51,209 nt of DNA from Syntrophobacteria bacterium (GTDB lineage: Bacteria; Desulfobacterota; Syntrophobacteria; BM002): assembly GCA_041560295.1 (NCBI GenBank), contig JBFFBS010000002.1:1-51209 (forward strand), in the 5' to 3' direction. The notes under the pieces were generated by a model. It saw only the letters and a program-made list of their open reading frames with translations, ran no database searches and had not been told where the DNA came from. The position numbers were made by a program, and so were the translations under genes. Positions 1,926 to 51,209 of this stretch are shown in pieces. Each line of letters opens with the position of its first letter. Position 1 is the first letter of the stretch.

Positions 1926-2260
1926 CCTTGAAGTCGTTGAAAGTGTTTAAGTCGTAAACAGCAAACGGTGAACGGTAAACGGTAAGCGGTAAACAAAAGA
2001 AGCCAGTAGTCAGGAGCCAGGAGCCAGTAGTTGAAGTACAGGGTACTAGGTGCATTACTCTATGCTCTATGCTTTTTCACAACGGACCACGGACGACGGA
2101 CAACTGACAGCAAGCCCTCCGCCCTCTTCTTCTGCCTAGTGCCTAGTTCTTAGTCCCTAGTTTTTTCTGACCGCTGCTAGCTGTCCGCTGCCAGCTCTCT
2201 TCCTCTAGGCTCTATGCCCTATGCTGTGCTACATCCCACATCTCATATCCCACATCCCAC
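1926..2260 (+). repeat. Modular short-tandem-repeat block (heptamer grammar)
   Basis: Module order: TCGTT-type 9-mers, GTAAACG x4, CCAGTAG/TCAGGAG x4, CTCTATG x2, CCACGGA x4, TGCCTAG x4, GCTGYC, CTATGCC x2, CACATCC x4. Colinear with 9584-9936. Confidence 0.9.
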
Positions 2261-2367
2261 TTCTCAGTTTTACAATTTCCTCCTTCTTCCCTTTGACAAC
2301 TGCCCATGTTTTGTTGCAGACTTAACTCAATCACTACCGGCTTCAGTCGAACATGGAGGTAGCATGC

Positions 2368-2787
2368 ATGGAGTCCTCAATACTGAGCCCAACAGAAAAG
2401 TGGGACGAGCACAATAGGAAATTACAAATCATCGAATCTGAAATACAGCAAACAGAGGTTTTTCTGGAAAGTGTGAAGGAAAAACGAGCTAGCCCCCGCA
2501 TTCGCTCTCTTCTCCTGGCTTCCTACGTGCCCAGGAAGGGTGAACGACAAGAATACATAATCTCGATTGGCCGGACTCTCGACGTGAGTGAGGGCGGAGC
2601 AAAGATAGAAACACACCGCCAACTGGATAAAGGGTTGCAACTTGAATTAGAAATAGCAGTGGAAGACCAGATAATATCAGCCAAGGGGGTGGTGCTCTAT
2701 TCTCAGGAACTCGGGGATGGCCTCTTCGGGACTGGGATCAGTTTCACTGCTATCAATGAGGAAGCTCGCCGCTTGCTTCGATCGTAA
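2368..2787 (+). CDS. PilZ domain protein
   Basis: RASPR (RxxxR) and DVSEGG (DxSxxG) PilZ motifs. Start placed at ATG 2368, 8 nt after GGAGG, rather than ATG 2353. Confidence 0.7.
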   Translation: MESSILSPTEKWDEHNRKLQIIESEIQQTEVFLESVKEKRASPRIRSLLLASYVPRKGERQEYIISIGRTLDVSEGGAKIETHRQLDKGLQLELEIAVEDQIISAKGVVLYSQELGDGLFGTGISFTAINEEARRLLRS

Positions 2788-2907
2788 GGGCGTGAAGCGC
2801 GACAATAAAGAATCCGGTCCCATCGAAGATCCCGCTATTCGGGGAAGGACCCGGCCTTGGGCTGCCTAAGTGAAGGGCTCAAAGCTTAAGACACAGGGCC
2901 TGTGTTA

Positions 2908-2960
2908 GCTAGCAGCAGACAGCCCGCAACAAGCTCGGGGCAGGCAGGCAGCGGGCAGCA
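2908..2960 (-). repeat. Inverted copy of the GCTGCC/CCCGAGC module
   Basis: Its reverse complement (TGCTGCCCGCTGCCTGCCTGCCCCGAGCTTGTTGCGGGCTGTCTGCTGCTAGC) matches the + strand module at 39140-39200. This is the only clearly unpaired inverted block I found. Confidence 0.8.
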
Positions 2961-3069
2961 AAAAAATAAAAGTTTCTATGTTTTTATAAACTCCATGCCT
3001 GAGCCATGCTTAAGCGTCCGCGGCCATCTGAAGTTAATGCTCTAACAGAACGTCGGTAAAGACGAAAAG

Positions 3070-3456
3070 ATGAAGATACCGAAGTGGTTGATTGTTGTAG
3101 CTCTGGGCCTAGGCGGGCTGATGTGGTGGCATCAGGGGGGCAATTTGCCGGATTTTGTTCCTGATTGGTTGCGTAGCACTACACCAGTAACAAGTCCTGA
3201 TGCGACAGAGTACAGCTTGATCGGTGGATTTCCCGCTGCAGCCAGTAGACCGGTGTTCAAACAGTTGACTTCGCTCAGCCGCGGAGAGGGCGCAGAGACT
3301 ATCGAAGAGTTGAGAGAGCAGGGTTTGGTTTGGGAGACACTTGATGGGCAGAGGGTGCGGGTTCTCAGTAGAAAGCGGGGCTCTAAAGTGGTGGAGGTGC
3401 AAAACATAGGAAGTTTTGACTCATATTGGACATATACTGATGCATTGGGGAAATAA
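3070..3456 (+). CDS. Membrane-anchored hypothetical protein (128 aa)
   Basis: ATG 3070. N-terminal TM/signal anchor MKIPKWLIVVALGLGGLMWW. No domain recognised. Confidence 0.5.
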   Translation: MKIPKWLIVVALGLGGLMWWHQGGNLPDFVPDWLRSTTPVTSPDATEYSLIGGFPAAASRPVFKQLTSLSRGEGAETIEELREQGLVWETLDGQRVRVLSRKRGSKVVEVQNIGSFDSYWTYTDALGK

Positions 3457-3522
3457 TACTGTCCAATTTAGACTGAGCCATTTGCTTATAAATCACAAGG
3501 GAGATACTCAAAAGGAACATAT

Positions 3523-3795
3523 ATGCGCAAACCAAGCAAACTGATGATCATAAGGGACCTCCAGGAAGAATTGTGGCAAGTAGTTGAGCCTCGGATTGAT
3601 TCAGAAACTGTCACCACCGATTCACACGAGAGAATTATGAGGCTGGCGATTCAGAGGTTTGTTGAGGAGAGGGCCAAATCTCTTAGCATGGCCGAATTGG
3701 CAGATGCCCTCGATTCGCTAGAGCAGACTGTGACATTATTTCTGGAATATCTTCGCTCCAAGGGAATAGCTGGCGATCCGATAGCAGTGCAATAA
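3523..3795 (+). CDS. Hypothetical protein (90 aa)
   Basis: ATG 3523 with AAAGGAACATAT upstream. No domain recognised. Confidence 0.45.
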   Translation: MRKPSKLMIIRDLQEELWQVVEPRIDSETVTTDSHERIMRLAIQRFVEERAKSLSMAELADALDSLEQTVTLFLEYLRSKGIAGDPIAVQ

Positions 3796-3817
3796 ACCGT
3801 ATTAGCATTCCGCAAAC

Positions 3818-5413: not shown

Positions 5414-5630
5414 TTCTTCCTCCCGAAAACCCTGTCTTGTCAATGTGGCATGAGACCCACGAGCATTGCTGATATCTCGGTTTCTGTTTTATAAAGAGAA
5501 AGCAAGACCAGTGCCAAGCTCGAGGAGAGGACAGAAAAAACCCTCAACGAAAATAATTCAGCTAACCACGCCTGCCCAGCGAGGGTCAGAGTTCAATAGT
5601 TTTGCCGGCAAAGATCGCGAGCTTTTGTAG

Positions 5631-5757
5631 AGGTTTCAGGTGTTCCGCCGGGGGCGGATCAGGTGTCAGGAAATATAGCCATAGAAGCTGAAACCTGAAC
5701 ATTGAACACTGAACACTAAAACCTGTTATTTGGTGCTTGGAATTTGATATTTTACAG
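5631..5757 (+). repeat. Modular repeat block (CAGGTGT arms, CCGCC-GGG-GGCGG hairpin, TTTGGTGCTTGG motif)
   Basis: GGTTTCAGGTGTTCCGCCGGGGGCGGATCAGGTGTCAGG is the inverse of 12517-12555. It is followed by CTGAAACCTGAACA units and ATTTGGTGCTTGGAATTTGATATTTTACAG. Confidence 0.9.
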
Positions 5758-5840
5758 GTCTGTAGCCGCTCCTTGCCCTTCCCTTCCTGCCAGTCTCACC
5801 AACGGACGTAGTGAGTTTCCCCGCATGTAATGGTTTCATT

Positions 5841-6578: not shown

Positions 6579-6690
6579 CCAGCAGGAGTCAGGAGCCTGG
6601 AGTCAGGAGCAAGTAGTAAGCAGTAAGCGGTAAGCAGTGAGCGGTGAGCGGGAAACGATGTCTCTCATCCCACATCCCACATCCCACATC
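6579..6690 (+). repeat. Modular repeat block
   Basis: CCAGCAG/GAGTCAG units, then GTAAGCA/GTAAGCG/GTGAGCG x6, then CACATCC x4. Confidence 0.9.
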
Positions 6691-8125: not shown

Positions 8126-8238
8126 GAAATTCCAAATTCCAAACCTGTTTTGGTCATTTAGTATTGGAATTTGAGATTTGTTTGTAATTTGGTGCTTGAA
8201 ATTTGATATTTTGCAATGATCCACCACTCCATCACTCC
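8126..8238 (+). repeat. Modular repeat block (AAATTCC units, TTTGGTGCTTGAAATTTGATATTTT motif, CACCACTCCATCACTCC)
   Basis: The TTTGGTGCTTGRRATTTGATATTTT motif is shared with 5728-5757 and 12599-12650. Confidence 0.9.
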
Positions 8239-9010: not shown

Positions 9011-9108
9011 GAAATTCCAAATCACAATAACCAAAATTAAAAATTCAAAATCTGTTTGGGTCATTGAAAATGGGGACCCGCCCGCAGGGTGGGAGTCCGG
9101 AGGACCAA
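9011..9108 (+). repeat. Modular repeat block ending in twin-hairpin motif
   Basis: GAAATTCCAAATCAC..., then GGGGACCCGCCCGCAGGGTGGGAGTCCGGAGGACCAA. Confidence 0.9.
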
Positions 9109-9583: not shown

Positions 9584-9936
9584 AATCGTTGATTAGTCAA
9601 TTGGTCAAATAGTCAAATCGTTCAACTCGTAAACGGTAAACGGAAAGCCCTTCGACAGGCTCAGGACGCTTCGCGCAGTAAACGGTAAATCAATAATCAA
9701 AGAATCCAGTAGTCAGTAGTTGAGGTACAGTGTACAAGGTGCCTTACTCTATGCTCCATGCTCTCTGCTCTATGCTTTTTTCACAACGGACCACGGACTA
9801 CGGACAACTGACAGCAAGCCCTTCGCCCTCTGTCTTCTGTCTAGTGTCTAGTTCTTAGTTGACCTGCTGCCAACCTTTCCTAAGCTTGCCGAAGGGCTGT
9901 CTTCTCCATGCCCCATGCTCTATGCCCTATGCTCTC
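9584..9936 (+). repeat. Modular repeat block, colinear with 1926-2260
   Basis: TCGTT-type units, GTAAACG, CCTTCGACAGGCTCAGG, CCAGTAG, CTATGCT x4, CAACGGACCACGGACTACGGACAACTGACAGCAAGCCCTTCGCCC, TGTCTAG x3, CCATGCC/CTATGCC x4. It abuts the stop codon at 9936. Confidence 0.9.
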
Positions 9937-12258: not shown

Positions 12259-12468
12259 AATCTGTTTTCCTCTTTCTCAAATAAATATATCTTTGAATTC
12301 TTACAACCTATTGAGATCATTTCTATTTTAATCAGCGAAAAGGCCAGGTTCATGATCTCGGATACTACATTGTGGCACTACCTGTCAAGCCGATATTTTA
12401 TTAATCTTGGAGAACCTGATCCGCAACGCTAGTTCAGAATTCAATGGTTTTGCCGATCTCAAAGACTA

Positions 12469-12650
12469 AGGTTTCAGGTTTCAGTGTTCAGGTTTCAGTT
12501 TTTTTGTTTTTCCTTCCTGACACCTGATCCGCCTCCGGCGGAACACCTGAAACCCTGAGATTTGTCCTTCGGACTCCCACCCTCCGGGCGGGGCCCCGGT
12601 TTGGTGCTTGGGATTTGATATTTTTCAATACTTCACCACTCCATTACTCC
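12469..12650 (+). repeat. Modular repeat block with long hairpin, inverted twin-hairpin motif and TTTGGTGCTTGG motif
   Basis: CAGGTTT/CAGTGTT units, a T-rich loop TTTTTTTGTTTTTCC, CTGACACCTG, CCGCC-TCC-GGCGG, an inverted GGGAGTCCGAAGGACAAA motif, then TTTGGTGCTTGGGATTTGATATTTTTCA and CACCACTCCATTACTCC. Confidence 0.9.
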
Positions 12651-13860: not shown

Positions 13861-14172
13861 GTAAGTTAGTAAGCAGTAAGCAGTAAGCAGTAAGCAGTGA
13901 GCGGTAAGCGGTAAAAAAAGAATCCAGGAGTCAGGAGACAGGAGTTAGGAGTTAGAATTGAGGTTCCAGGTGTCAGGTTTCAGGTGTCAGTAGTAAAAGG
14001 TAAATTTTTATCTAGCATCGAGTATCCAGTATCCAGCATCGGGCTCTTAAATCCGCAATCCGAAATTCTGTCCTCCGCCCGCTGCTTTCTGCCCGCTGTC
14101 TTTTCCTATGCTCTATGCCCAGTGCTTTTTCGCTCTGCGCTCTGCGCTCTGCGTCAATCAATCCGCAATCTA
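13861..14172 (+). repeat. Composite repeat family A, copy 1
   Basis: GTAAGCA/GTGAGCG x7, A-run, AGAATCCAGGAGTCAGGAG..., TTGAGGTTCCAGGTGTCAGGTTTCAGGTGTCAGTAGTAAAAGGTAAATTTTTATCTAGCATCGAGTATCCAGTATCCAGCATCGGG, AATCCGC x2, GCTGCY, CTATGCY, GCTCTGC x3. Confidence 0.95.
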
Positions 14173-18946: not shown

Positions 18947-19150
18947 AACCGTTGAAGTCGTTCATTAGTTGATTGGAGAATTAGAAAATTAGTTAAAACC
19001 GCAGGATCGCGGCTGACCTTCGACAGGCTCAGGTCTGGGAAAGCCGCTCCCACAGTAGAATCTTTGTCTTCTGTTTTTTAAATCCGCAATCCGCAATCCG
19101 AAACCGGGAACCCGCCCGCAGGGTGGGAGTCCGCAGGACAATTCCGCAAT
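18947..19150 (+). repeat. Modular repeat block containing ~100-bp family D copy 1 and twin-hairpin motif
   Basis: GAAGTCGTT units; GATCGCGGCTGACCTTCGACAGGCTCAGGTCTGGGAAAGCCGCTCCCACAGTAGAATCTTTGTCTTCTGTTTTTTAAATCCGCAATCCGCAATCCGAAA (19004-19103); GGGAACCCGCCCGCAGGGTGGGAGTCCGCAGGACAA. Confidence 0.95.
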
Positions 19151-19153
19151 CTC

Positions 19154-20950: not shown

Positions 20951-21400
20951 GGTCCTCCGGTTCTAGAACGGGCGGCTCGAGCTTGCACCGGCGCCCGGTG
21001 TCGTCTCCCGGTAGCTCGGGTAAAAGGGAATTGGATCTGTTATTCAAGCGGCCCCATTGAAGCTCCCTGCCCCGCTTTAGCGGAACTAAAGCGGGACAGT
21101 CCGCCTGCGGCGGATTCGAAATGTAAGGAAGTGATTCCATCTTATTGTAGTTCGCTCGCTAACCCCGTCCGCCTCAGGCGGACTACGGGGAATGCGTTCG
21201 CCCTGTTGAATTTCCCGAAGGGAACCCTATTCAACGGGGCGAGCAGTAGCATTTTCAGCCACAGAATTTTCCACCCAGTGGATCGACCGGACTCGATTCC
21301 AGGGGCGAGTTGTTCATGTATCCCAATCGGGCGAGGAAGTCAATCCGGGTAACACCGGGAGTGTTCTCTTTATTCAAAATTGAAAACGTGGTCATCAGGG
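20951..21400 (-). other. Highly structured 450-nt region upstream of lepA (leader or unassigned ncRNA)
   Basis: No credible ORF. It is a chain of perfect hairpins, for example CGCCCTGTTGAAT..TTCCC-GAAG-GGGAA..ATTCAACGGGGCG, CCCCGTCCGCC-TCAG-GCGGAC-ACGGGG, CCCGCTTTAGC-GGAA-CTAAAGCGGG and CACCGG-CGC-CCGGTG. Confidence 0.35.
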
Positions 21401-21402
21401 CC

Positions 21403-21560
21403 AGATCAGGTCGCATAGGGCATAGCGCCTAACGCCTAGCGAAAAAAAAGAGTGAACGGTAAATGGTAAAGGGTGAACAGTCGCGGAGCTAGGGCATGAT
21501 CGGCTTACCGTTCACCGTTTGCTGTTTACCTCACGCTTTGCATCTGCGCTTAGCGCTTTG
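21403..21560 (+). repeat. ~160-bp repeat family C, copy 1 (left flank of the ExeA-like/vWA-FHA pair)
   Basis: CAGATCAGGTCGCATAGGGCATAGCGCCTAACGCCTAGCGAAAAAAAAGAGTGAACGGTAAATGGTAAAGGGTGAACAGTCGCGGAGCTAGGGCATGATCGGCTTACCGTTCACCGTTTGCTGTTTACCTCACGCTTTGC... More than 90% identical by eye to 25009-25170. Confidence 0.95.
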
Positions 21561-24974: not shown

Positions 24975-25008
24975 CTTTGTTCAACATCGAAAGCCTGGTC
25001 CTTGGAGT

Positions 25009-25170
25009 CAGATCAGATCGCATAGGGCATAGCGCCTAGCGCCTAGCGAAAAAAAAGAGTGAACGGTAAATGGTAAAGGGTGAGCAGTCGCGGAGCCAGG
25101 GCATGATCGGCTTACCGTTCACCGTTTACTGTTTACCTCACGCTTTGCGCTCTGCGCTTGGCGCTTTGCG
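25009..25170 (+). repeat. ~160-bp repeat family C, copy 2 (right flank of the ExeA-like/vWA-FHA pair)
   Basis: Same sequence and orientation as 21403-21560. It starts 35 nt after the stop at 24974. Confidence 0.95.
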
Positions 25171-25369
25171 TCGAGGGGCAGTTCAAAGGCGGGTCCTTTG
25201 GGTCTGGATTCTTCACTATAAAAAACCCCCACTAGCTAGGGCCAATAGCAAATGGGGGTTAGAGTTCAAAGTAGGTATCAGACAAGGAGGTTGTCTGCCT
25301 TCAATTTCTTGAATTATCCTACTTGCCTAATAGATAATCACGCGACTGCCCATGTCAAGAGGATAAAGA

Positions 25370-26804: not shown

Positions 26805-27851
26805 TCACTGCGGTGAGACGCTATCCACTTTTTTCTCAATCCAGTCGTTCAGCATCACACCGACACCGATACGGTTAACACTGTGATCGTAGTCAACCAG
26901 GCTTTCTCCATAGCCGTTAAAGTACTGCGCGTACAGCCTCAGGTTCGTCAAAATCGGATAGCTCCATCCGAGTTCCACAGCGCCCCTGTTGTTTTGCCGC
27001 AGATTGTTACGGAACATGAACGAAAAAACATGCCCTTTCAGCTCGTAGCCACCAAAGAGTTGACCGTATCCCATATACTTTTCAATATTGGGATTGTCAT
27101 CGTCGTCATCATCCTCAGGAATCCGGTACCAGGGTTTTAGGGCAATGAAAAAGTTGCCTCGGTCAGCTGCAAAAACACCAAATACGCGGTTCCAGCTTCG
27201 TGAAAGCTCTCCCCCTCTTCCGTTCGATTGGTGGTTAAATCCGATGGTAATGAGCCGGTTCCTGAGTCCAAGCACATTGAGATCGGTATCAAACTTGAAA
27301 AATACTTCAGGTTCGTAGTTGGTTTCCCTGAAAGGGGAAGACAAATCCTTGTCATAAAGTTGCCAGAATGAGAGCTGTGTGTAGGCAAAAAATAGGTCAC
27401 CGTTGCCCCAAAACATCTTCTCCCACAGTAGTACCTTGAAGCTGAGCTGAAATTTCACCTCAGTATTACTTGGCTTATTTTCACCAGCCGAATTATACGT
27501 CTCCCTGTTGGAATTGCTGTTATAGGCCAGAGGGAGAAAATAATTTTGTCGATGCGTGCTTAATGAAAAGAGCCCAGTGCCTGCCTTTTTCTCTTCCTTT
27601 TCACGCCTTCTAATGACAGACTCTTCCTCCTTTTCCGAAGTGTCTCCAACTTCTTCCGGTGTTGAGACCGCTTTACTTGGCGCATCAAGTGCGGTTTCTT
27701 CTTGCTCGGCTCGACATGGTGAACTAAGAGAAATAACGGTAACGGCTATGGCGCACAAGGTGGCGGAAAAGGACAGCAGATATCTCGACCGTAACGTGGT
27801 AAAGGGTAAACGGTAAGCAGTGAGCAGTATGCTACATCTCATATCCCACAT
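26805..27851 (-). CDS. pldA: Outer-membrane phospholipase A (OMPLA)
   Basis: GFNHQSNGRGGELSRSWNR contains the OMPLA HxSNG active-site motif. Beta-barrel-like alternating C-terminal half. The start codons (27851/27842) lie inside heptamer repeats. Confidence 0.85.
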   Translation of the reverse strand: MWDMRCSILLTAYRLPFTTLRSRYLLSFSATLCAIAVTVISLSSPCRAEQEETALDAPSKAVSTPEEVGDTSEKEEESVIRRREKEEKKAGTGLFSLSTHRQNYFLPLAYNSNSNRETYNSAGENKPSNTEVKFQLSFKVLLWEKMFWGNGDLFFAYTQLSFWQLYDKDLSSPFRETNYEPEVFFKFDTDLNVLGLRNRLITIGFNHQSNGRGGELSRSWNRVFGVFAADRGNFFIALKPWYRIPEDDDDDDNPNIEKYMGYGQLFGGYELKGHVFSFMFRNNLRQNNRGAVELGWSYPILTNLRLYAQYFNGYGESLVDYDHSVNRIGVGVMLNDWIEKKVDSVSPQ

Positions 27852-28033
27852 CTCAAATCAAGTAGTCAGTAGCCAGAATCCAGAATTGAGGTTTCAGGTG
27901 TCGGGTGTCAGGAAAATAAGGCATAGAGCAAAGAGCATGGAGCATAGGGTAAAAACTTGAGCCAAGAATGTTCTATCTCTATTCCCTATTTCTTCTCGAA
28001 TTCCTCAATCCCTCAATCCCTTAATCTCTCAAT
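27796..28033 (+). repeat. Modular repeat block (overlaps the 5' end of pldA)
   Basis: GTAAAGG/GTAAACG/GTAAGCA/GTGAGCA, CACATCT/CATATCC units, CAGTAGT/CAGTAGC, CAGGTGT units, inverted GGCATAGAGCAAAGAGCATGGAGCATAGGG, CCTCAATC 8-mers x4. Confidence 0.95.
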
Positions 28034-28325: not shown

Positions 28326-28433
28326 AATCAAATCGTGAATGCTAAGCAGTAAGCGGTAAGCAGTAAGCGGTAAATCGTTATCGAGAAATGAATATCTCAA
28401 ATTCCTAAATTCCTCAATCTCTAAATTCCTAAA
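28326..28433 (+). repeat. Modular repeat block (family J with 31784-31900)
   Basis: AATCAAATCG, GTAAGCA/GTAAGCG x4, GGTAAATCGTTATCGAGAAATGAATATCTCAAATTCC, CCTAAATT/CCTCAATC units. Confidence 0.9.
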
Positions 28434-28452
28434 TTTGCCCTCCTCCCATGCA

Positions 28453-28890: not shown

Positions 28891-29149
28891 GGTTTGTCCC
28901 TCTTTGTTTGAGAAGCGTTTCTCATTTTGGCCAAATTTAGTTTGCAAGGGTCATGCCTGAATACCTGCTTCGGGAGTTGAGCAGCATAGAGGGAGAAAGT
29001 GGAAAGCAAAATAGCCCTGTCTAGAGCGCGACTAGTTCCATACATAGACAATTGAGATCGGACTATCAACACTGTTCTGATAATTTAAGATTTCGAGCAA
29101 TAGATGCACAAATCCATACATCAGCATGCGGACGCCGCTGTGATTCATA

Positions 29150-29278
29150 GTAAGCAGTAAGCGGTAGGCGGTAAACAGAAAGTCGCTGAAGTCGTTGAAA
29201 ACGTTCAAATCGTTAAAGTCGTAAATGGTAAATGGTGAGCGATAAATCCGCAATGTACAGTCTAAAATCTGCAATCTT
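29150..29278 (+). repeat. Modular repeat block
   Basis: GTAAGCA/GTAAGCG/GTAGGCG/GTAAACA, GAAGTCGYT 9-mers x5, GTAAATG x2, AATCCGC and AATCTGC units. Confidence 0.9.
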
Positions 29279-29682: not shown

Positions 29683-29917
29683 GCATCGCTGAAGTCGTTG
29701 AAACAGTTCAAATCGTTAAACTCGTAGAAATCCTTCAAAGCACAAGATCGCGGCTGACCTTCGACAGGCTCAGGTCTGGGAAAGCCGCTACCACAGTAGA
29801 ATCTTTTTCTTTTGTTTTTAAATCCGCAATCCGCAATCCGAAATTCTGTCCTCTGCCCGCTGCCTTCTGCCGACTGCCAGCTGTCTTCCCTATGTTCCAT
29901 GCTCTCTGCTCTATGCC
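29683..29917 (+). repeat. Modular repeat block containing ~100-bp family D copy 2
   Basis: GAAGTCGTT units; 29746-29843 is near-identical to 19004-19103; then GCTGCC units and CTATGYY/CCATGCT x4, running up to the stop codon at 29918. Confidence 0.95.
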
Positions 29918-30757
29918 CTACTCCAGTCCAAACTCAATACCCCGCCCGTGCCAAATCTTGGCCAGTTGGTTTTTACTCAAAAATCTCCTGCCCTCCAACG
30001 GATCAAAGATTTCAGCTTTATCTTTGTTCAACCCCATATATGCAACTGCGTGAGATTCGGGCCCGGTGAATTGGTTGTCGATGAAAAGCATAGCAGGAGC
30101 GTTGAGCTTCTCAGGGTTGGAGTCTAGAACTTCTACTTTGTTGCAGGAAAAACCAATCTTTCTCATCCCATAGATAACCTGTGCCCCTGAGGTGCCCCAA
30201 ACAGTGGTCCCAAAGAGCTCAGCCATCTGCTTTTCGGTTTTCTGCATGCCAAAGGTTCGGGCAATGCTGGCTCCCGAGGCGGCAGCACAGCTTGCGTTGC
30301 TGGTCTGCATGACTGTTCCGGAGGTTGCCACGATGTCTTTGAGACGTGGCGCAATGGGGCGAGTGTAATTCCACTGGATAACCTGGATTACGGAGATGAG
30401 GAGGATTCCGGCAACAATAATCTTCCACCGCTCCCGGTGTTGTATGCGCAGAGCTATTGCAGAAGCAAGACTGAAGACGAAGGCAAAGATGGCTAGAATA
30501 CCGCCCCATGTCAGGGCGGTGTAGTGATACTGAAGCCATAAAGGTAAGTTCCATAGCAGATGTGGGCGGTTCAGGTTGGCTATAACCAGAAGAATGAGGC
30601 TCAGGGGAATGAGAATATAAAGATAGGGGGCTCTCCTGAGGACCGTTTTCATGTCAAGATTCGGATCTTTTATAAAGAGCCTCCTGCACTCAATGTAGCC
30701 CACAAAGATGAAGCCGATAACAAGCACAATGTTGAGCCATAAAGGAATGCCGACCAT
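29918..30757 (-). CDS. Membrane protein with C-terminal peptidase C39-like (papain-fold cysteine peptidase) domain
   Basis: Four or five N-terminal TM helices. QTSNASCAAASGASIARTFG (Q...C), HAVAYMG (His) and IFDPLEG (Asp) match the C39 catalytic layout. Confidence 0.65.
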   Translation of the reverse strand: MVGIPLWLNIVLVIGFIFVGYIECRRLFIKDPNLDMKTVLRRAPYLYILIPLSLILLVIANLNRPHLLWNLPLWLQYHYTALTWGGILAIFAFVFSLASAIALRIQHRERWKIIVAGILLISVIQVIQWNYTRPIAPRLKDIVATSGTVMQTSNASCAAASGASIARTFGMQKTEKQMAELFGTTVWGTSGAQVIYGMRKIGFSCNKVEVLDSNPEKLNAPAMLFIDNQFTGPESHAVAYMGLNKDKAEIFDPLEGRRFLSKNQLAKIWHGRGIEFGLE

Positions 30758-30837
30758 TTTGGCCTCTTAGCAAATGAGAAGAAAATGTCCAACGCTGTCA
30801 AATGAAATCATAATGAAAGAAGCATGCCACTTTTGAG

Positions 30838-31040
30838 TAACGGTAAGCAGTAAGCGGCAAAAAAAGAATCCAGGAGTCAGGAGCCAGAATTGAGGTTTCA
30901 GGTGTCAGGTTTCAGGTGTCAGTAGTAAAAGGTAAATATTTATCGAGCATCGAGTATCCAGTATCCAGCATCAAGTTTTTAAATCCGCAATCCGAAATTC
31001 GCAATTCGAAATTATTTCCCTATGCTCCATGCTCTATGCT
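30838..31040 (+). repeat. Composite repeat family A, copy 2
   Basis: Same order as 13861-14172, with whole-unit differences (two fewer CAGGAG units, extra AATTCGC units). ORF 30916..31326 starts inside it (MSVVKGKYLSSIEYPVSSI...). Confidence 0.95.
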
Positions 31041-31783: not shown

Positions 31784-31900
31784 AATCGTACATGGTAAAC
31801 GGTAAGCGGTGAGCGGTAAATCGTTATCGCAAAACGAATATCTCAAATCCCTTCATTCCTTAATCTCTTAATTCCAAATCCGAATTCCGAATTTTCCCTA
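31784..31900 (+). repeat. Modular repeat block (family J with 28326-28433)
   Basis: AAAATCGTA, GTAAACG/GTAAGCG/GTGAGCG, GGTAAATCGTTATCGCAAAACGAATATCTCAAATCCC, TTCCTTAATC units, AATCCGAATTCCGAATT. Confidence 0.9.
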
Positions 31901-33304: not shown

Positions 33305-33432
33305 AAGAAAAATCAAAGAATTCAGTAGCCAGTAGCCAGTAGTCAAGGGTGTCAGGTGTCGGGTGTCAGGTGTCAGCGAAGAAAAATAACATTACTGAAA
33401 CCTGAACACTGAAACCTGAAACCTCAGTCTTT
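33305..33432 (+). repeat. Modular repeat block forming a long imperfect hairpin between convergent genes
   Basis: AAAGAATTCAGTAGCCAGTAGCCAGTAG, GGTGTCA/GGTGTCG x4, loop, then inverted CTGAAACCTGAACACTGAAACCTGAAACC. Confidence 0.9.
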
Positions 33433-38080: not shown

Positions 38081-38277
38081 GTGAGCGGTGAGCGGTAAGC
38101 AGTGAGTGGTGAACCGTTGAAGCTGTTGAAACCGGTAAAGTCGTTAAACTCGTGTTTTCCAGGTTATAGGTCATGGGTTATAGGTGATAGGTTTTTACCC
38201 ATAACCCATGACCCATCACCAATAACCTAGAATCCTTTCTCGCCTTTCTCGCCAGCGAACGTAGTGAGCTCCATGCC
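38081..38277 (+). repeat. Modular repeat block containing palindrome family B copy 2
   Basis: GTGAGCG x5, GAAGCTGTT/AAAGTCGTT units, CAGGTTATAGGTCATGGGTTATAGGTGATAGGTTTTTACCCATAACCCATGACCCATCACCAATAACCTAG (38160-38230), CCTTTCTCG x2, ACGTAGTGAGCTCC. Confidence 0.95.
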
Positions 38278-38968: not shown

Positions 38969-39225
38969 TAGTAAGCAGTGAGCGGTAAGCGGTAAAAAAA
39001 GAATCCAGGAGTCAGGAGAGAGGAGTTAGGAGTTAGAATTGAGGTTTCAGGTGTCAGTAGTAAAAGGTAAATTTTTATCTAGCATCGAGTATCCAGTATC
39101 CAGCATCGGGCTCTTAAATCCGCAATCCACAATCCGAAATTTTGTCCTCTGCCTGCCTGTCCCGAGCTGGTCGCGGAGCTGCTAGCTGTCCGCTGCCAGC
39201 TGTCTTTCCCCATGCTCCATGCCTT
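38969..39225 (+). repeat. Composite repeat family A, copy 3
   Basis: Near-identical to 13861-14172 except for a 14-nt (2-unit) deletion in the CAGGTGT array and a 7-nt insertion in the AATCCGC array. It ends with GCTGCC units and CCATGCT x2. Confidence 0.95.
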
Positions 39226-39633: not shown

Positions 39634-39672
39634 AAAATCCGCAATCCGAGCTCCGCAATCTGCAATCCACAC
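39634..39672 (+). repeat. AATCCGC-type heptamer array
   Basis: AAATCCGCAATCCGAGCTCCGCAATCTGCAATCCACAC. Confidence 0.9.
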
Positions 39673-40616: not shown

Positions 40617-40686
40617 GCCCCATGCTCTCTTCTCTATGTTTTTTCAAATCCGAAATCCGAGATCCGCAATCTCCAATCTAAAATCT
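40617..40686 (+). repeat. Modular repeat block
   Basis: CCCATGCTCTCTTCTCTATG, then AAATCCGAAATCCGAGATCCGCAATCTCCAATCTAAAATC. Confidence 0.9.
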
Positions 40687-40760
40687 TTTTCTACCTCTTA
40701 CAACAAATGACAGCGGAGCGTCTTGACCTAATGCCGGCGCAGCCATATGACTCGACTCAC

Positions 40761-40815
40761 TGCTGCCTGCTGCTAGCTGTCTGCTGCCGCCTGTATTTCG
40801 CTATGCTCTATGCTA
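40761..40815 (+). repeat. Modular repeat block (GCTGCC and CTATGCT units), overlaps a stop codon
   Basis: TGCTGCCTGCTGCTAGCTGTCTGCTGCCGCC...CGCTATGCTCTATGCTAAT. Confidence 0.9.
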
Positions 40816-41136: not shown

Positions 41137-41246
41137 TAAAGAATTCAGTAGTCAGTAGCAAGTAGTTTAGGTTCAAGGTACAAGGTTCAGGGTATAAGGT
41201 ACAGGGTACAGGGTACCTTACTCTATGCTCCATGCCCCATGCCCCT
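41137..41246 (+). repeat. Modular repeat block
   Basis: AAAGAATTCAGTAGTCAGTAGCAAGTAG, GGTTCAA/GGTACAA/GGTTCAG/GGTATAA/GGTACAG x7, CTCTATGCTCCATGCCCCATGCC. Confidence 0.95.
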
Positions 41247-42338: not shown

Positions 42339-42529
42339 TGCTCTATGCTTTCCTATAACCCACATCTCATATCCCAAATCCCAATCACTAAGGTATCACT
42401 GTTCAGGTTTCAGCTTTTTTGTTTTTCTGCCCTGACACCCGACACCTGAAACCTTTGATTCTTCAATCTTCAATCTAAAATCTGCAATCTTCTCTATGCC
42501 CTGTGCCTTGAGCCCTGCGCCTTGCGCCT
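42339..42529 (+). repeat. Modular repeat block with T-loop hairpin
   Basis: CTCTATGC, CACATCTCATATCCCAAATCCCAATC, CAGGTTTCAG-CTTTTTTGTTTTTCTGCC-CTGACACCCGACACCTGAAACC (like 12484-12527), CTTCAATC units, AATCTGC, CTATGCC, GAGCCCT/GCGCCTT units. Confidence 0.95.
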
Positions 42530-43160: not shown

Positions 43161-43414
43161 TCGTAAACGGTAAACGGTGAACGGAAAACCGTTAAAATCG
43201 TTGAAGTCGTTCAAATCGTTAAACTCCTGTTTTCCAGGTTATAGGTCGTGGGTTATAGGTGATAGGTTGTTACCCATAACCCATTACCAATCACCAATAA
43301 CCTAAGAATCCTTTCTCGACAGTCTTGCTTTTCGCGCTTGTCCTGAGCTTGCCTGCCCTGAGCCTGCCGAATGGGTCGAAGGGCCTTTCTCGCAAGCTTA
43401 CGCAGTGAGCTCCC
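43161..43414 (+). repeat. Modular repeat block containing palindrome family B copy 3
   Basis: GTAAACG/GTGAACG, GAAGTCGTT 9-mers, CAGGTTATAGGTCGTGGGTTATAGGTGATAGGTTGTTACCCATAACCCATTACCAATCACCAATAACCTAAG (43235-43305), CCTTTCTCG, GAGCTTGCCTGCCCTGAGCCTGCC, ACGCAGTGAGCTCC. Confidence 0.95.
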
Positions 43415-44985: not shown

Positions 44986-45110
44986 TAGGTCGTGGGTTAT
45001 AGGTGATAGGTTGTTACCCATAACCCATTACCCATCACCAATAACCTAAGAATCCTTTCTCGCTTACTCATGCAGTGAGCCCCTTGCGCCCTGTGCCTTT
45101 TGCCTATACC
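44986..45110 (+). repeat. Modular repeat block containing palindrome family B copy 4
   Basis: GTCGTTAGGTCGTGGGTTATAGGTGATAGGTTGTTACCCATAACCCATTACCCATCACCAATAACCTAAG, CCTTTCTCG, ATGCAGTGAGCCCC, TTGCGCC/CTGTGCC units. Confidence 0.95.
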
Positions 45111-47128: not shown

Positions 47129-47166
47129 CAAATGTCCTTATCGTGTCGAATTCATCAAATAGTTTC

Positions 47167-47280
47167 TGTAAGCAGTGAACAGTAAGCGGTAAGCAGAACT
47201 TCACATCTTATATCGCACATCGAATATCTACAATCTGCAATCTCAAATCTGCAATCTTCTCTACGCCCTATGCTCTATAC
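47167..47280 (+). repeat. Modular repeat block (overlaps the 3' end of ORF 47261-47482)
   Basis: GTAAGCA/GTGAACA/GTAAGCG/GTAAGCA, CACATCT/TATATCG/CACATCG, AATCTGC units x4, CTACGCC/CTATGCT. Confidence 0.95.
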
Positions 47281-47482
47281 TTTCTTCTTCATATTCAACA
47301 ATAGAGACAACCTGCACCTTGTCTGAAGCCTGAAAGTAATAGTATTGGTGATAGTTGCTCCTGTCACACAATGCCTTCTTTAGGTTGTCCATGGTCACTT
47401 CTTCAGGTTTTAATTTTCTGCTCCGGCTTGACCCTATAACGTGGTCGATTGTGTCTGGAACAATTAAGGTAATTTGTTTCAT
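47261..47482 (-). CDS. Hypothetical small protein (73 aa)
   Basis: ORF whose last six codons (SIEHRA) and stop are encoded by the reverse complement of CTATGCY units. No family recognised. Confidence 0.35.
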   Translation of the reverse strand: MKQITLIVPDTIDHVIGSSRSRKLKPEEVTMDNLKKALCDRSNYHQYYYFQASDKVQVVSIVEYEEESIEHRA

Positions 47483-49364: not shown

Positions 49365-49449
49365 TTGGGGGGATTTTTTGAAATGCAATAAAGAGATTGG
49401 CCGAGCGGCCTCTATAACAGGAGCGTAGCTCTCTTTTCCTCATCGTTTT

Positions 49450-49507
49450 GCTGACCGCTGATCGCTGACGGCTGAACGCTGTTTTTCTGACAGATACGGT
49501 CAAAAGG
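49450..49507 (+). repeat. GCTGAYC heptamer array plus box 2 (TGAC-N7-GTCA at 49488-49502)
   Basis: GCTGACC GCTGATC GCTGACG GCTGAAC GCTGTTT TTC TGACAGATACGGTCA AAAGG. Confidence 0.9.
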
Positions 49508-49586
49508 AAGAATTTTTATAGATAGGCAGGAAAAGGTTTTGGCGTTTTTTCAAATCATGAGAATTGAATAATCTTGTCTTGTTTTT

Positions 49587-49646
49587 CGCTGATAGCTGAC
49601 CGCTGAGGGCTGAACGCTGTCTTTCCGACACATCAGGTCAAAAGGG
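49587..49646 (+). repeat. GCTGAYC heptamer array plus box 3 (GAC-N7-GTC at 49626-49640)
   Basis: CGCTGATAGCTGACCGCTGAGGGCTGAACGCTGTCTTTCCGACACATCAGGTCAAAAGGG. This is a direct repeat of 49450-49507. Confidence 0.9.
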
Positions 49647-49665
49647 TGGGTTTTTTTGGTGAGCC

Positions 49666-49803
49666 GTAAGCAGTAAGCGGTAAAAAAAGAATCAAGTAGC
49701 AAGTAGTCAGTAGCCAGAATCCAGCATGCGAATCCGACTCTCTTATATTCGCAATTCGCAATTCGAAATTCGCAATTGTTTCCCTACGCTCCATGCTCTA
49801 CGC
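49666..49803 (+). repeat. Modular repeat block (runs into the stop codon of the phosphoesterase gene)
   Basis: GTAAGCA GTAAGCG GTAAAAA, AAGAATCAAGTAGCAAGTAGTCAGTAGCCAGAATCCAG, ATTCGCA x4, CTACGCT/CCATGCT/CTACGCT. Confidence 0.95.
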
Positions 49804-50334
49804 TTCTATCGTCCTGTGTCCATATACCCCAATTACCCTCGTGTCCCCCAATTCCGACTCCCAGTTTACATGTTGATGACCGTGAATGAGGATCCTGGGT
49901 TTTCTTTCCAATACATAGGTCTTGAGCCCGTCGAAGCCGTAATGAACCTCATCCTCCTGGTCGTGAATCCCCCTTGGGGAGTTATGGGAAAAAAAGATGT
50001 CCACTATAGGGAAATTGGACAGATATTCTTCCACTTCCCACTGCTCGAACAGAAAGTGGCCCCGTGGTTTGTATTTCCATGCGCCGCTCAGGCCTCCGAA
50101 TCTCACACCGTGCATTTCTTTAACCTGAAGATGCATATCTGTGATCGGTTCTAGAAAGGGGGTATTCGGGTCGTGATTTCCCTTTACCGCCAGGATAGTC
50201 TTACACCCATGCGATTCTGCAGCTTCCAGGATCACCTGGTCAGAAATGTCACCACACGATACGAGCACATCCGCTCGCCCGCTCCCGTGCTCCCAGTGAA
50301 AGTCGTCTATGTCCGAAATCACAAGTATTTTCAT
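49798..50334 (-). CDS. Metallophosphoesterase (calcineurin-like)
   Basis: MKILVISDIDDFH, CGDISD, GNHD and HGHQH motifs. Start moved to ATG 50334 (AAGGAAAAACG upstream). Confidence 0.8.
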   Translation of the reverse strand: MKILVISDIDDFHWEHGSGRADVLVSCGDISDQVILEAAESHGCKTILAVKGNHDPNTPFLEPITDMHLQVKEMHGVRFGGLSGAWKYKPRGHFLFEQWEVEEYLSNFPIVDIFFSHNSPRGIHDQEDEVHYGFDGLKTYVLERKPRILIHGHQHVNWESELGDTRVIGVYGHRTIEA

Positions 50335-50340
50335 CGTTTT

Positions 50341-50381
50341 TCCTTGCCTTACGCCTTGAGCCTTGCGCCTTGCGCCTTTTG
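50341..50381 (+). repeat. GCGCCTT-type heptamer array in a 47-nt intercistronic gap
   Basis: CCTTGCCTTACGCCTTGAGCCTTGCGCCTTGCGCC. Its reverse complement supplies the AAGG SD of the downstream gene. Confidence 0.9.
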
Positions 50382-51077
50382 CTAATGTATCGTCACCTCC
50401 GGCAACTCCGATTGAGTAATCTCCACCCCCTCCCTGCACCATTCCAAACGAAGTTTGAGATAGGGGGCCCTTGCAAAAAGCTCGGGGTGGTCGCTCAAAA
50501 GGTTCTCGAGATGAACCAGTGCCCTGGCGTCATATGGTTCCACCTGCGTTGCTGTGATGTAGCACTCGACAGCTGCTTCGAGCCTACCGAGGCCTTCGCA
50601 TGCCAAGCCAAGATTTTTGTAGGCATTTGCTAGCTCAGGTTCGATGGAGATTGCTCGCTCCAGGAGAGGCTCGGCCTCCTCGAACTGCTCCAATAGAATA
50701 AGTAAATAGCCGAAGTTGTTGTGAAGGAAATACAGGGTATTATCCTCGAGCTCTTCCAGCTCCAGCGCCTCATCGTAATAAGCCCTTGCTGATTCATAGT
50801 CCTCCATCTCCTCCGTTAGCAGGGCCAGCGCGAGCAAACAGTGAGCTCGCTGATCCGAGTTCTTCGACAGCTCCAACAGCCGCTCGACAAACCCTACCGC
50901 CCTTTCCCGCTGACAGGTACGGCTGCAAAACCTTACAAGGTTCCAGAGTGTGGACTGGCACTCACCCCAGCTATCTTGCAGGCAGGCGAGCAGCTCTGTT
51001 TCGAATTCCTTGAAATAAATGACTTCCCCCGGACCAAGACCAGGGGTGCAATACTGCAGCTTAAGATTTTCCGACAT
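50382..51077 (-). CDS. Tetratricopeptide-repeat (TPR) protein
   Basis: Repeated A-x-x-x-Y/F...A-L-E-L/P TPR-like helices (ESARAYYDEALELEE, FEEAEPLLERAISIEP, ANAYKNLGLACEGLGRLEAAVECY). TAGGAGAAGG SD. Confidence 0.7.
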   Translation of the reverse strand: MSENLKLQYCTPGLGPGEVIYFKEFETELLACLQDSWGECQSTLWNLVRFCSRTCQRERAVGFVERLLELSKNSDQRAHCLLALALLTEEMEDYESARAYYDEALELEELEDNTLYFLHNNFGYLLILLEQFEEAEPLLERAISIEPELANAYKNLGLACEGLGRLEAAVECYITATQVEPYDARALVHLENLLSDHPELFARAPYLKLRLEWCREGVEITQSELPEVTIH

Positions 51078-51095
51078 AACCTTCTCCTATGATCT

Positions 51096-51209
51096 GGTGA
51101 GCGGTAAACGGAGAACCGTTCAAGTCGTTCAAATCGTAGAAATCGTCTTCTATTTTTCTCATAGTGCCTAGTTCTTAGTTCCTAGTTCCTGGTTCTTTCT
51201 GCCCGCTGC
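51096..51209 (+). repeat. Modular repeat block (continues past the window end)
   Basis: GTGAGCG GTAAACG, CAAGTCGTT/CAAATCGTA/GAAATCGTC 9-mers, TGCCTAG/TTCTTAG/TTCCTAG x4, CTGCCCGCTGC. Confidence 0.95.

Follow-up and report, generated by a model that had tools for sequence, protein, structure and literature searches.

Mosaic blocks of tandem heptanucleotide arrays in the intergenic DNA of a Syntrophobacteria bacterium

The stretch of DNA analyzed in this work (the window) comprises 51,209 nucleotides of a Syntrophobacteria bacterium (positions 1 to 51,209 of contig JBFFBS010000002.1, assembly GCA_041560295.1). Its genes, 21 in plus and 32 in minus orientation, are ordinary chromosomal ones, among them those for a hybrid-cluster protein, LepA, an HtrA-like protease, a DEAD-box helicase, PilZ and FHA proteins, bactofilin, PLA1, PagL, and a PAS-LuxR regulator. 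The DNA between them contains blocks of short tandem arrays, mostly with units of 7 nt (heptamers). An earlier description made from the letters alone (the sequence-only reading) had counted more than 30 such intergenic blocks, had described them as a shared "grammar" of heptamer units concatenated in a recurring order and ending at or near start and stop codons, and had found no described class of element to which they could be matched. We followed up these claims computationally.

Coding and non-coding DNA were separated by means of a greedy set of open reading frames (ORFs) filtered by codon-usage score. In the non-coding DNA (16.5 kb), identity between positions separated by 7, 14, and 21 nt was 0.336, 0.313, and 0.293 (z = 23, 17, and 11, respectively), the lag-7 value of 200 dinucleotide-shuffled versions being 0.254±0.0035. 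Coding DNA had a lag-7 identity of 0.246 and showed period 3 as its only periodicity. Arrays were essentially absent inside the well-supported ORFs of the window, and the ORFs that did overlap arrays had negative coding scores. A unit length of 7, earlier called incompatible with coding, breaks reading frames. The z value of 23 against shuffles, together with the lack of a coding signal, indicated that the repeat signal is real, strongly non-random, and confined to non-coding DNA: the intergenic period-7 excess for which an autocorrelation check had been proposed was found against both coding DNA and shuffled controls.

The arrays are visible when 1800–2400 and 9500–10050 are simply read. Tandem Repeats Finder returned 130 rows for the window, mostly of period 7 or 14; a scan with a lag-7 identity threshold of 0.7 or more in 21 nt delimited 58 segments (3161 nt), and a scoring scan delimited 82 heptamer arrays (2258 nt). 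These 82 arrays have a modal length of 29–33 nt, with about 4.3 imperfect units, and more than 15 heptamer unit families are represented in the window. Altogether, heptamer arrays amount to about 6% of the DNA and roughly one fifth of the non-coding DNA. Once arrays of 8-mers and 9-mers were joined to them, 32 clusters were obtained in 51 kb, in line with the earlier count, and units recur from block to block as had been claimed. Head-to-tail 7-nt units above chance, confinement to non-coding DNA, and dispersal over many loci are the characters of the intergenic heptanucleotide-repeat class to which long simple sequence repeats (LSSR) and short tandemly repeated repetitive sequences (STRR) belong, and the pattern continues into the flanking contigs. 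By rough gene calls, the placement of arrays at start and stop codons held for 11 of the 82, which lie within 10 nt of one, and failed for the rest; the median distance to any gene boundary is 88 nt.

In order to compare the blocks with each other, an all-against-all BLAST of the non-coding segments was carried out. Multi-module blocks of 100–200 nt were found to recur at 82–92% identity: 21368–21560 resembles 24975–25168 (91%), 13889–14082 resembles both 38970–39156 (88%) and 30836–31000 (85%), 2017–2154 resembles 9706–9859 (82%), and 38093–38242 and 43168–43318 are likewise paralogous. The resemblance extends to the succession of unit variants: the string ACAACGG ACCACGG ACKACGG ACAACTG (ACAACGGACCACGGACKACGGACAACTGACA) is present at both 2079 and 9783, and ATCTAGC ATCGAGT ATCCAGT ATCCAGC (ATCTAGCATCGAGTATCCAGTATCCAGCATC) at 14010 and 39077, with a near-identical string at 30942. 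Alignment of paralogues revealed single-base changes, indels of 7 or 14 nt within arrays, and whole modules that had been swapped, gained, or lost. Heptamer phase is kept solely between adjacent modules of paralogous copies, and a block is therefore a string of modules and not a single long array; the possibility of one continuous phased array per block was rejected on this basis.

Module order is conserved as well. Among 103 ordered pairs of module families, 95 followed the majority order (shuffles, 0.72±0.04), and none of 5000 within-block shuffles reached the observed value. Colinearity of 1926–2260 with 9584–9936, which had been the example offered for the recurring order, was confirmed, both blocks running B-C-H-J-K-H in terms of module families, with the 82% identity given above over 2017–2154 and 9706–9859. 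Mosaics of motifs in a recurring order are also a character of bacterial interspersed mosaic elements (BIME), and the resemblance is one of architecture only. Thus, the units and the order that prompted the term "grammar" are real, but they largely reflect common descent, as seen in the 82–92% identical paralogues and their identical unit variants. On these sequence comparisons, the "grammar" is best read as descent of the blocks from common composite ancestors, that is, mostly as paralogy.

Unit families, defined by regular expressions, lie mostly in one chromosomal orientation across the window (78 plus versus 6 minus; 15:1 for GTRAGCR and 14:0 for the AATCCGC type), and the exceptions are second arms of hairpins. 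In the left flank (7.3 kb, from a contig of an NCBI metagenome-assembled genome, MAG) two of four blocks are inverted, together with their module order, and an absolute chromosomal polarity was consequently rejected. Clusters occupy convergent, divergent, and tandem gaps at about background frequency, so that a preferred gene context, such as that of a terminator or a promoter, was also rejected. Since array orientation is indifferent to gene direction, these data argue against Shine-Dalgarno roles or roles in the untranslated regions (UTRs) of neighboring genes. The Shine-Dalgarno, anti-Shine-Dalgarno, and UTR-length-tuning functions that had been suggested for the units fit poorly, given this gene-independent orientation, the background contexts, the location of CAGGAG arrays hundreds of nucleotides from start codons, and the turnover of units and modules between lineages with genes about 90% identical (see below).

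The modules differ in their capacity to fold. At least eight are inverted pairs, in which an array faces its reverse-complement array, with folding z scores against shuffles from -2.2 to -5.1: -5.14 for 38150–38260, -4.55 for 24975–25175, -4.25 for 12455–12560, -3.6 for 43225–43315, -3.0 for 21405–21550, -2.2 for 5625–5760, and, for 33340–33430, -4.6 (plus strand) and -3.9 (minus strand). Long direct blocks fold poorly (13860–14165, z = -1.3), one of them being less structured than its shuffles (1940–2270, z = +2.2). The earlier suggestion of structured UTR RNA therefore applies, as far as structure is concerned, to the hairpin subset (z -3 to -5) and not to the long direct blocks. Consensus units often lie within one mismatch of each other's reverse complement, 61 pairs being classed as "opposite". 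The idea that the right-half modules of a block are mirror complements of its left half was discarded, since blocks fold no better than shuffles. No Rfam family matched at gathering score in the whole window; a consensus terminator scan returned 24 sites versus 20±4.6 expected, none of them an array hairpin, and the array hairpins lack the T runs that, with a GC-rich hairpin, define an intrinsic terminator.

Smaller elements are nested within the arrays. The 28-mer GCCCTTCGACAGGCTCAGGACGCTTCGC has an identical copy in a GTRAGCR array at a non-orthologous site (L117:1041–1068) of a lineage whose genes are about 90% identical, which suggests a very small mobile or copied insert targeting GTRAGCR-type arrays. 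A GC-rich element of about 36–40 nt (GTCCTTCGGACTCCCACCCTGCGGGCGGGTTCCCGG) lies inside AATCCGC-type arrays; its stems are kept and its loop positions vary, and it may be a repetitive extragenic palindrome (REP)-like or 3'-end element. Mini-hairpins of 13–16 nt (CCGCCGGRGGCGG) are nested in CAGGTGT arrays. A rule that nested inserts always preserve phase holds for the 28-nt insert and fails for the others. The features of the window are collected in Table 1.

Table 1. Repeat features of the window, with their positions, strand, and composition (rc, reverse complement).
Feature	Position	Strand	Composition and remarks
Composite block, 7 modules	1964..2260	+	GTRAACG, CCAGGAG/CCAGTAG, CTCTATG, CCACGGA, TGCCTAG, CTCTATG, CACATCC; G-rich half then C-rich half
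GC-rich element GTCCTTCGGACTCCCACCCTGCGGGCGGGTTCCCGG	3805–3865, 9066–9110, 19093–19152	-	Directly 3' of htrA, gene 9158–9505, and lepA, respectively
GC-rich element GTCCTTCGGACTCCCACCCTGCGGGCGGGTTCCCGG, fourth occurrence	12559–12603	+	
Hairpin element	5625..5760	.	CAGGTGT-type array vs reverse-complement CTGAAAC/CTGAACA; nested CCGCCGGGGGCGG mini-hairpin; z = -2.2
Block	6583..6690	+	CAGGAGT, GTRAGCR, CACATCC arrays; begins 6 nt past stop codon
AAATTCC micro-array	8127..8143	+	
AAAATTA micro-array, weak	9033..9051	+	
Composite block colinear with 1964–2260	9594..9932	+	8/9-mer TCAAATCGT, GTAAACG, CAGTAG, CTCTATG, CCACGGA, TGTCTAG, CCATGCY
Nested 28-nt insert GCCCTTCGACAGGCTCAGGACGCTTCGC	9647..9674	+	Within GTAAACG array
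Hairpin element	12455..12560	.	CAGGTTT array vs its reverse complement; nested CCGCCTCCGGCGG mini-hairpin; z = -4.25
Composite block	13868..14153	+	GTAAGCA x6.7, CAGGAGT, CAGGTGT, ATCCAGT, AATCCGC, GCTGCC, CTATGC, CGCTCTG
AATCCGC array, broken by ~36-nt GC-rich hairpin element	19075..19153	+	Directly 3' of lepA
Nested long hairpin block	21368..21560	.	GCATAGS/AGCGCCT + GTRAACG, loop, reverse-complement GTRAACG + CGCTYTG; z = -3.0
Nested hairpin block, paralogue of 21368–21560	24975..25175	.	Begins at VWA-FHA gene stop codon; z = -4.55
AGGTTAT/ATAACCT-type hairpin + CCTTTCTCG 9-mer array	25432..25540	.	Abuts stop of minus-strand gene 25544–25951
Composite block	26140..26390	+	rc-CTATGCC, TCAGGAG, GGTWCAG, CTCTATG, CCACGGA, GCGCCTT, AATCCGC
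Block	27798..28033	+	GTAAACG/GTRAGCA, CAGTAG, CAGGTGT, rc-CTCTATG, 8-mer CCTCAATC array
GTAAGCR array + 8-mer AAATTCCT array	28343..28435	+	L117 orthologue bears 28-nt insert
GTAAGCR, 9-mer AAAGTCGTT, GTAAATG arrays	29149..29236	+	L117 without 9-mer and GTAAATG modules
AATCCGC, TCTGCCN, CTATGCY arrays	29821..29920	+	Between convergent genes; variants +7 nt (L005), 36-nt deletion (L002)
Composite block	30836..31040	+	GTAAGCR, CAGGAG, CAGGTGT, ATCSAGY, AATYCGM, CYATGCT
GTRAGCG array + AATTCCG/AATCCGA array	31785..31893	+	GTRAGCG begins 2 nt past stop codon
CAGTAGC array, then GGTGTCA/CTGAAAC hairpin	33323..33430	.	Between convergent genes
GTGAGCG array, AGGTTAT/ACCCATA hairpin, CCTTTCTCG 9-mers	38081..38253	.	
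Composite block, paralogue of 13868–14153	38970..39204	+	
AATCCGC array	39636..39668	+	
AAATCCG + CTGCTGC arrays	40646..40788	+	
TCAGTAG, GGTWCAR x7, CYCCATG arrays	41145..41245	+	Reach stop of GMP-synthase-like gene
CAYATCC, rc-CAGGTGT, AATCTNC, GCGCCTT-type arrays	42361..42529	+	
GTAAACG array, 9-mer AAAATCGTT array, AGGTTAT/ACCMATA hairpin	43163..43307	.	z = -3.6
ACCCATA half-hairpin + GCGCCTT-like array	45011..45107	+	
GTRAGCA, AATCTGC, CTATGC arrays	47166..47289	+	31-nt and 80-nt deletions in other samples
Two GCTGAYC arrays, then GTAAGCR, CAGTAG, AATTCGC	49447..49781	+	
GCCTTGC array	50343..50387	+	-7 nt in L208
9-mer CGTTCAAAT + TAGTTCC arrays, window edge	51117..51203	+	Pattern runs on into flanking contig L210

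The gene map is uncertain at one point of the window: at 49798–50442, on the minus strand, the gene calls of other assemblies include a metallophosphoesterase-like gene that overlaps the plus-strand ORF 49726–50154 chosen by the greedy set.

Variation within the population was analyzed by pairwise BLAST with 19 near-identical contigs, which span 32.9 kb of the window. Of the 14 small indels, six were whole-unit or whole-module changes within arrays, which make up 5.3% of the compared sequence; these were +14 at 357, +8 at 28003, +7 at 29825, -7 at 50360, -36 at 29820, and -31 at 47268. Unit number thus changes in unit-length steps (+7, -7, +8, and +14 nt) between near-identical assemblies, and the strain comparison that had been proposed as a check did reveal whole-unit variants; the 8-mer CCTCAATC array gains one unit in four other samples. 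Larger deletions fall between repeated modules: L207 and L209 lack a 246-nt stretch (49381–49626) that includes the first GCTGAYC array, and a 32-nt direct repeat lies at its breakpoints. A further pair of similar segments, outside the features of Table 1, was noticed at 316–421 and 5841–5946 (92% identical); it consists of period-14 and period-13 tandem repeats (AGCGACACGACCTG and CTCGTCGACAAGT), and one copy bears an additional 14-nt unit in L211 and L212. Single-sample deletions of 15–87 nt were also recorded at 17559–17631, 21692–21778, 24072–24086, 27569–27587, and 27646–27719. That at 21692–21778 is intergenic and the other four affect genes (pyridine-nucleotide oxidoreductase, VWA-FHA, PLA1), in some cases splitting gene calls; they could be real variants or assembly errors.

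Comparison with more distant relatives revealed the presence or absence of whole modules and blocks. Between the window and L117, with gene identities of about 90%, the presence of a 52-nt pair of modules varies; the 9-mer and GTAAATG arrays of 29179–29240 are missing from L117, and one and the same intergenic site can hold different unit types. About 290 nt of 12398–12699, including the hairpin element, are absent from the sister-species contig L007, and about 446 nt (approximately 5565–6010), with the paralogous hairpin, from the 97%-identical MAG contig L211. Such insertion polymorphism between close relatives is a character of miniature inverted-repeat transposable elements (MITEs), and the boundaries of these stretches define no single element. 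L117 lacks the PLA1 gene (26805–27851 in the window) and has heptamer arrays at the junction, and L007 has an altered gene order around lepA (11214–13801 and 19153–21057 in the window) with arrays where the order breaks; the blocks thus mark sites at which synteny or gene content changes. As regards L211 (GCA_041562855.1), it has near-zero differences from positions 1–4000 of the window and then, up to 9000, differences of 5–15% per 250 nt, a mosaic divergence that suggests recent recombination between strains. Conservation of a block in this MAG (0 mismatches in 297 nt) was discarded as uninformative, since the block lies within that near-identity tract.

The best match of LepA among species-representative genomes was to a Syntrophobacterales-labelled MAG (96% amino acid identity), and its other relatives were in Thermodesulfobacteriota or "Deltaproteobacteria" MAGs, at 79% or less. 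Judging by these matches, the host is an uncultured Thermodesulfobacteriota lineage, of the sulfate-reducer type. Period-7 coverage was 62 nt/kb in the window, 53–76 nt/kb in population contigs, 21 nt/kb in the relative with the 96% identical LepA, and about 0–15 nt/kb in 79 relatives with LepA identities of 79% or less. This gradient indicated that the repeats are massively amplified in one narrow lineage.

The same arrays were present in more than 15 independent assemblies (from the Joint Genome Institute, JGI; NCBI, MAG GCA_041562855.1; and Logan) at 99–99.9% nucleotide identity, and arrays were also found in the flanks and in sister lineages with genes about 90% identical. Confinement of the units to the window, which would have undermined the earlier description, was thus not observed, and recovery in independent JGI, NCBI, and Logan assemblies excludes an assembly artefact. 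In other assemblies, the contigs on which window genes lie are mostly under 2 kb long (four of six for one gene) and break off close to array blocks; the repeats fragment short-read assemblies of the host organism. These breaks are what an assembly or sequencing artefact might leave behind, but the arrays are 99–99.9% identical across the three sources and recur in the sister lineages, and an unrecognized coding feature would be at odds with a unit that breaks reading frames and with the negative scores of the overlapping ORFs; the probability of either is negligible.

Arrays of this kind are also found far beyond this lineage. When metagenomes were scanned for three tandem copies of GTRAGCR, the matches listed came from contigs of 30–73% GC, often as inverted pairs. 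In IMG/VR, three-copy stretches of GTRAGCR (107) and CAGGWGT (55) were about as frequent as those of the scrambled heptamers GARGTCR (at least 120), GCTGWAG (109), and ACRTGGR (10), and a universal conserved GTRAGCR motif was therefore rejected: arbitrary heptamers form arrays widely, and the units of the window are not special. Unrelated contigs as array-dense as the window exist. The abundance of control arrays agrees with published surveys, in which heptamers are the most abundant class of long simple repeats of bacteria, with polymerase slippage as the proposed cause (Mrazek 2007, as summarized in PMC4679880; on abundance also Rehm 2015, PMC4692102).

The arrays obey a polarity rule. Neighboring arrays pass from G-skewed to C-skewed in all 12 cases of the window (12:0), in 55:3 cases among the matches listed for 119 metagenome loci (18:3 without a GTRAGCR array), and in 219:9 by GC skew, or 222:18 by purine content, in 396 IMG/VR loci. 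Arrays of period 8 show the polarity as well (33:3); those of periods 6 and 9 do not. More than half of the G-to-C pairs (157 of 273) are mutually reverse-complementary with at most one mismatch per unit, the random expectation being 3.3%, with a median arm of 30 nt and a median loop of 26 nt. The G-rich arm lies 5' in array hairpins by 356:21, versus a weak bias of 323:248 in ordinary hairpins of the same loci, which shows that the polarity is specific to arrays. Since it is the same on both strands, it cannot derive from orientation relative to replication or transcription, and its source must lie in the internal geometry of the element or in a filter to which that geometry is subject. The rule also governs the composite blocks when each is taken as a unit: the G-rich TCGTT-type, GTRAGCR, CAGGAG, and CAGGTGT/GGTACAG modules come first, and the C-rich ATCCAGT, AATCCGC, GCTGCC, CTATGCY, CACATCC, CCACGGA, GCGCCTT, CCTCAATC, and CCTTTCTCG modules later. 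This G-to-C polarity is new here, and candidate causes are defined ends, a filter against exposed C-rich RNA, or convergent 3'-end synthesis.

Based on these results, we propose, with a probability of about one half, that the blocks are lineage-amplified mosaic non-coding repeats within the known bacterial heptanucleotide class, and not a gene-by-gene regulatory code. They are probably slippage-driven selfish or neutral DNA, and they are not a new genetic code. The basic brick would be a module of about 30 nt with some four imperfect heptamer copies (in a few cases 8- or 9-mers), arising and being resized by slipped-strand mispairing during replication. Bricks would be strung into blocks of 100–350 nt, G-rich first and C-rich after, some of them true hairpins. 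Blocks or sub-blocks would then be copied to other intergenic sites, by recombination, gene conversion, or mobilization in trans as hairpin-forming DNA, would be lost by deletion between repeated modules, and would be invaded by smaller hairpin inserts. The data show periodicity, paralogy, slippage polymorphism, presence or absence of modules and blocks, nested inserts, polarity, and restriction to a lineage; we infer the sufficiency of slippage plus copying, weak selection on the sequence, and the copying mechanism itself. Slippage, copying, deletion, and nested invasion together argue for fast-evolving repeated DNA rather than conserved regulatory sites. Putative effects on gene expression are probably secondary; hairpin modules might serve as 3'-end structures and unstructured C-rich tracts as leaders.

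Several observations weigh against this proposal. Slippage alone predicts neither the near-absolute G-to-C polarity, nor the narrow module length (mode 29–33 nt; 30-nt median hairpin arms elsewhere), nor the one-strand bias across 51 kb; preferred length, polarity, and bias are left unexplained by slippage and copying, and they point to either selection or a further directional mechanism. An enzyme for copying was not found, the 51-kb window and some 10 kb flanking it encoding neither a transposase nor a REP-associated tyrosine transposase (RAYT). Target-site duplications could not be delimited, the flanks within arrays being themselves repeats, and inverted arrays are present but their flanking direct repeats are inseparable from the array context. 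Function is possible too: in Nostoc, deletion of heptamer repeats changed recF/recO reporter expression (bioRxiv 10.1101/2022.06.06.494920).

Alternatively, the blocks could be REPIN/BIME- or MITE-like elements mobilized in trans by a RAYT, an IS200/IS605-type single-strand transposase, or another transposase encoded elsewhere in the genome, with arrays as repeated end-binding sites and one-strand orientation as a trace of replication-coupled insertion. Many modules are indeed strongly folding inverted array pairs (z -3 to -5) that share an inside/outside polarity (26:0; 219:9), as for two defined ends; hairpin-bearing stretches come and go between close relatives; the ordered mosaic recalls BIMEs, orientation bias in the window is strong, and hairpin-forming REP doublets are an established mobile class (PMC3116915). 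We nevertheless consider this explanation unlikely, given that a single enzyme would hardly recognize more than 15 unit families, with arbitrary heptamers forming arrays elsewhere, that the transposase or RAYT is missing from the 51 kb and the flanks of about 10 kb and the target-site duplication could not be defined, that the long direct blocks lack palindromic symmetry (z -1.3 and +2.2), and that the inversion of two of four left-flank blocks makes the polarity not absolute. Quite unlikely, in our view, is that the arrays are cis-regulatory UTR elements whose units bind S1, cold-shock proteins, CsrA, or another factor and whose unit number acts as a rheostat. Their orientation is chromosomal and not gene-relative, clusters are found equally in gaps of convergent, divergent, and tandem type, start codons are far from most arrays (the median of 88 nt to any gene boundary), modules and unit types have been exchanged for others between lineages with gene identities of about 90%, and more than 15 unit families would require many specific binders. 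These facts stand against the 11 of 82 arrays within 10 nt of start or stop codons, the GGA or AGGAG cores of CAGGAG-like units, the variation of unit number in the population, the altered recF/recO reporter activity after deletion of Nostoc heptamer repeats, and an unstructured direct block (z = +2.2) that resembles the TAACTGA repeats, for which translational regulation has been proposed (PMC4679880).

Transcriptional punctuation would give the hairpins the role of terminators without a U tract, and the G-then-C blocks that of bidirectional insulators, in which transcripts from either side reach a C-rich, G-poor tract that lacks structure and has a pyrimidine-C dinucleotide at 7-nt intervals, resembling a Rho loading site. 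The C-rich halves lack structure, both strands show the same G-to-C arrangement, and four of the eight hairpin modules are located immediately 3' of genes (24975, VWA-FHA; 25432, gene 25544–25951; 33340, between convergent genes; 43225, DEAD helicase), but the other four are in divergent promoter regions, U tracts are lacking, and the terminator scan showed no enrichment (24 versus 20±4.6). Moreover, the same polarity was found in cyanobacterial-looking contigs, and cyanobacteria are, to our knowledge, generally said to lack Rho; textbook E. coli terminators tend to have the C-rich arm first, which is the opposite polarity. Punctuation is accordingly improbable. In a further scenario, the arrays would be scars of directional synthesis: the 3' ends of purine-rich strands on both sides of a break or nick would be reiteratively extended, in a telomere-like or slippage synthesis, and then joined, with the geometry of a head-to-head telomere fusion (G-rich and then C-rich repeats), repeated cycles building blocks from the center outwards. 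Near-absolute polarity (12:0; 55:3; 219:9), its specificity for arrays (356:21 versus 323:248), its strand symmetry, which must stem from the element's internal geometry, and the preferred arm length of about 30 nt are all consistent with it. However, no candidate enzyme was found here and we know of none for such synthesis, the halves of multi-module blocks are not mirror-image complements, and paralogous copying covers most of the pattern in the window; the idea is purely inferential, and we hold it to be very doubtful. In a more general form, heptamer arrays would be produced by a directional process with dyad symmetry, shared by many bacteria, and not by random slippage, given that adjacent arrays in the window and in hundreds of unrelated contigs pass from purine/G-rich to pyrimidine/C-rich (up to 24:1), mostly as hairpin arms of about 30 nt. 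This is a long shot; if true, two tracts would be synthesized in convergent directions, with the geometry of telomeres fused head to head, multi-module blocks would be layered records of repeated events, and much of the intergenic DNA of the host would have been written in this way.

The lineage studied here extends tandem heptamers to Thermodesulfobacteriota and offers a rich natural data set, with many unit families, paralogous copies, population variants, and sister lineages in metagenomes. The polarity rule, array-specific and holding across unrelated contigs, is a concrete, testable constraint for any mechanism. As the blocks break short-read assemblies and sit at synteny and gene-content breakpoints, they matter for MAG quality and for studies of genome plasticity.

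With respect to known systems, the comparators named in the sequence-only reading (STRR, the heptamers of sulfur bacteria, REP/BIME) were in the right neighborhood, and its statement that no described element class fits was too strong, since intergenic tandem heptanucleotide repeats are covered by the STRR, LSSR, and TAACTGA literature. STRR of heterocystous cyanobacteria have the units CCCCAGT, TTGGTCA, and CAACAGT. No tandem doublet of the STRR1–3 units was present in the window, which places the blocks outside STRR in the strict sense, and a literature search for the unit strings of the window returned no match. Cyanobacterial heptamers (STRR1–3 of Nostoc, Anabaena, and Calothrix; those of Microcystis and of Nostoc recF/recO) resemble the arrays described here in being tandem and intergenic, in their many dispersed loci, in the several unit families per genome, and in the frequent adjacency of different heptamers. 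They differ in host, Thermodesulfobacteriota here and cyanobacteria there, and the arrays of the window are short (about four units) and imperfect, with blocks that reach seven or eight modules in conserved order. "Assemblages of heptamer repeats" are also mentioned in the heptamer literature for Microcystis and Elizabethkingia. The TAACTGA repeats of marine Beggiatoaceae (MacGregor 2015, PMC4679880) are intergenic direct heptamer repeats in two to six copies, predicted to be unstructured, patchily distributed in phylogeny, and subject to indels in 7-nt steps between strains. They consist, however, of a single dominant unit facing a downstream start codon within a few nucleotides, whereas the window has more than 15 unit families in gene-independent orientation and not one tandem TAACTGA, and its arrays are not of the Beggiatoaceae type.

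LSSR (Mrazek 2007, as summarized in PMC4679880; Rehm 2015, PMC4692102) share the non-coding period-7 excess and a proposed origin by slippage; in these accounts, as far as they are drawn on here, LSSR are described as isolated simple arrays, and mosaic blocks, modules of about 30 nt, and G-to-C polarity fall outside that description. BIME, REP, and REPIN with RAYT (enterics and Pseudomonas; PMC3116915) are dispersed and extragenic, with mosaics in recurring order, hairpin doublets, amplification within the genome, and a frequent position just after genes. Their brick is a palindromic unit of 20–40 nt, unlike the tandem heptamer array of the window, where most blocks are direct and non-palindromic and where, as in the flanks, no RAYT was found. 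The nesting of inserts has a parallel as well. Elhai and colleagues, in a study of 2008 that PMC3116915 cites, are said to have described small dispersed repeats (SDR) of Nostoc punctiforme as tiny inserts nested in other repeats and present at non-orthologous sites, comparable to the 28-nt insert in GTRAGCR, the hairpin of about 36 nt in AATCCGC, and the 13–16-nt mini-hairpins in CAGGTGT arrays; the sequences are unrelated to the Nostoc families, and mobility here rests on two or three copies. By analogy, the blocks would work like STRR and LSSR in their repeats, and like BIME and REPIN in their mosaic, dispersed, and partly hairpin architecture. They are a new and extreme mosaic form of the heptanucleotide-repeat class known from cyanobacteria and giant sulfur bacteria, very dense, built of several modules, and present here in an uncultured Thermodesulfobacteriota lineage.

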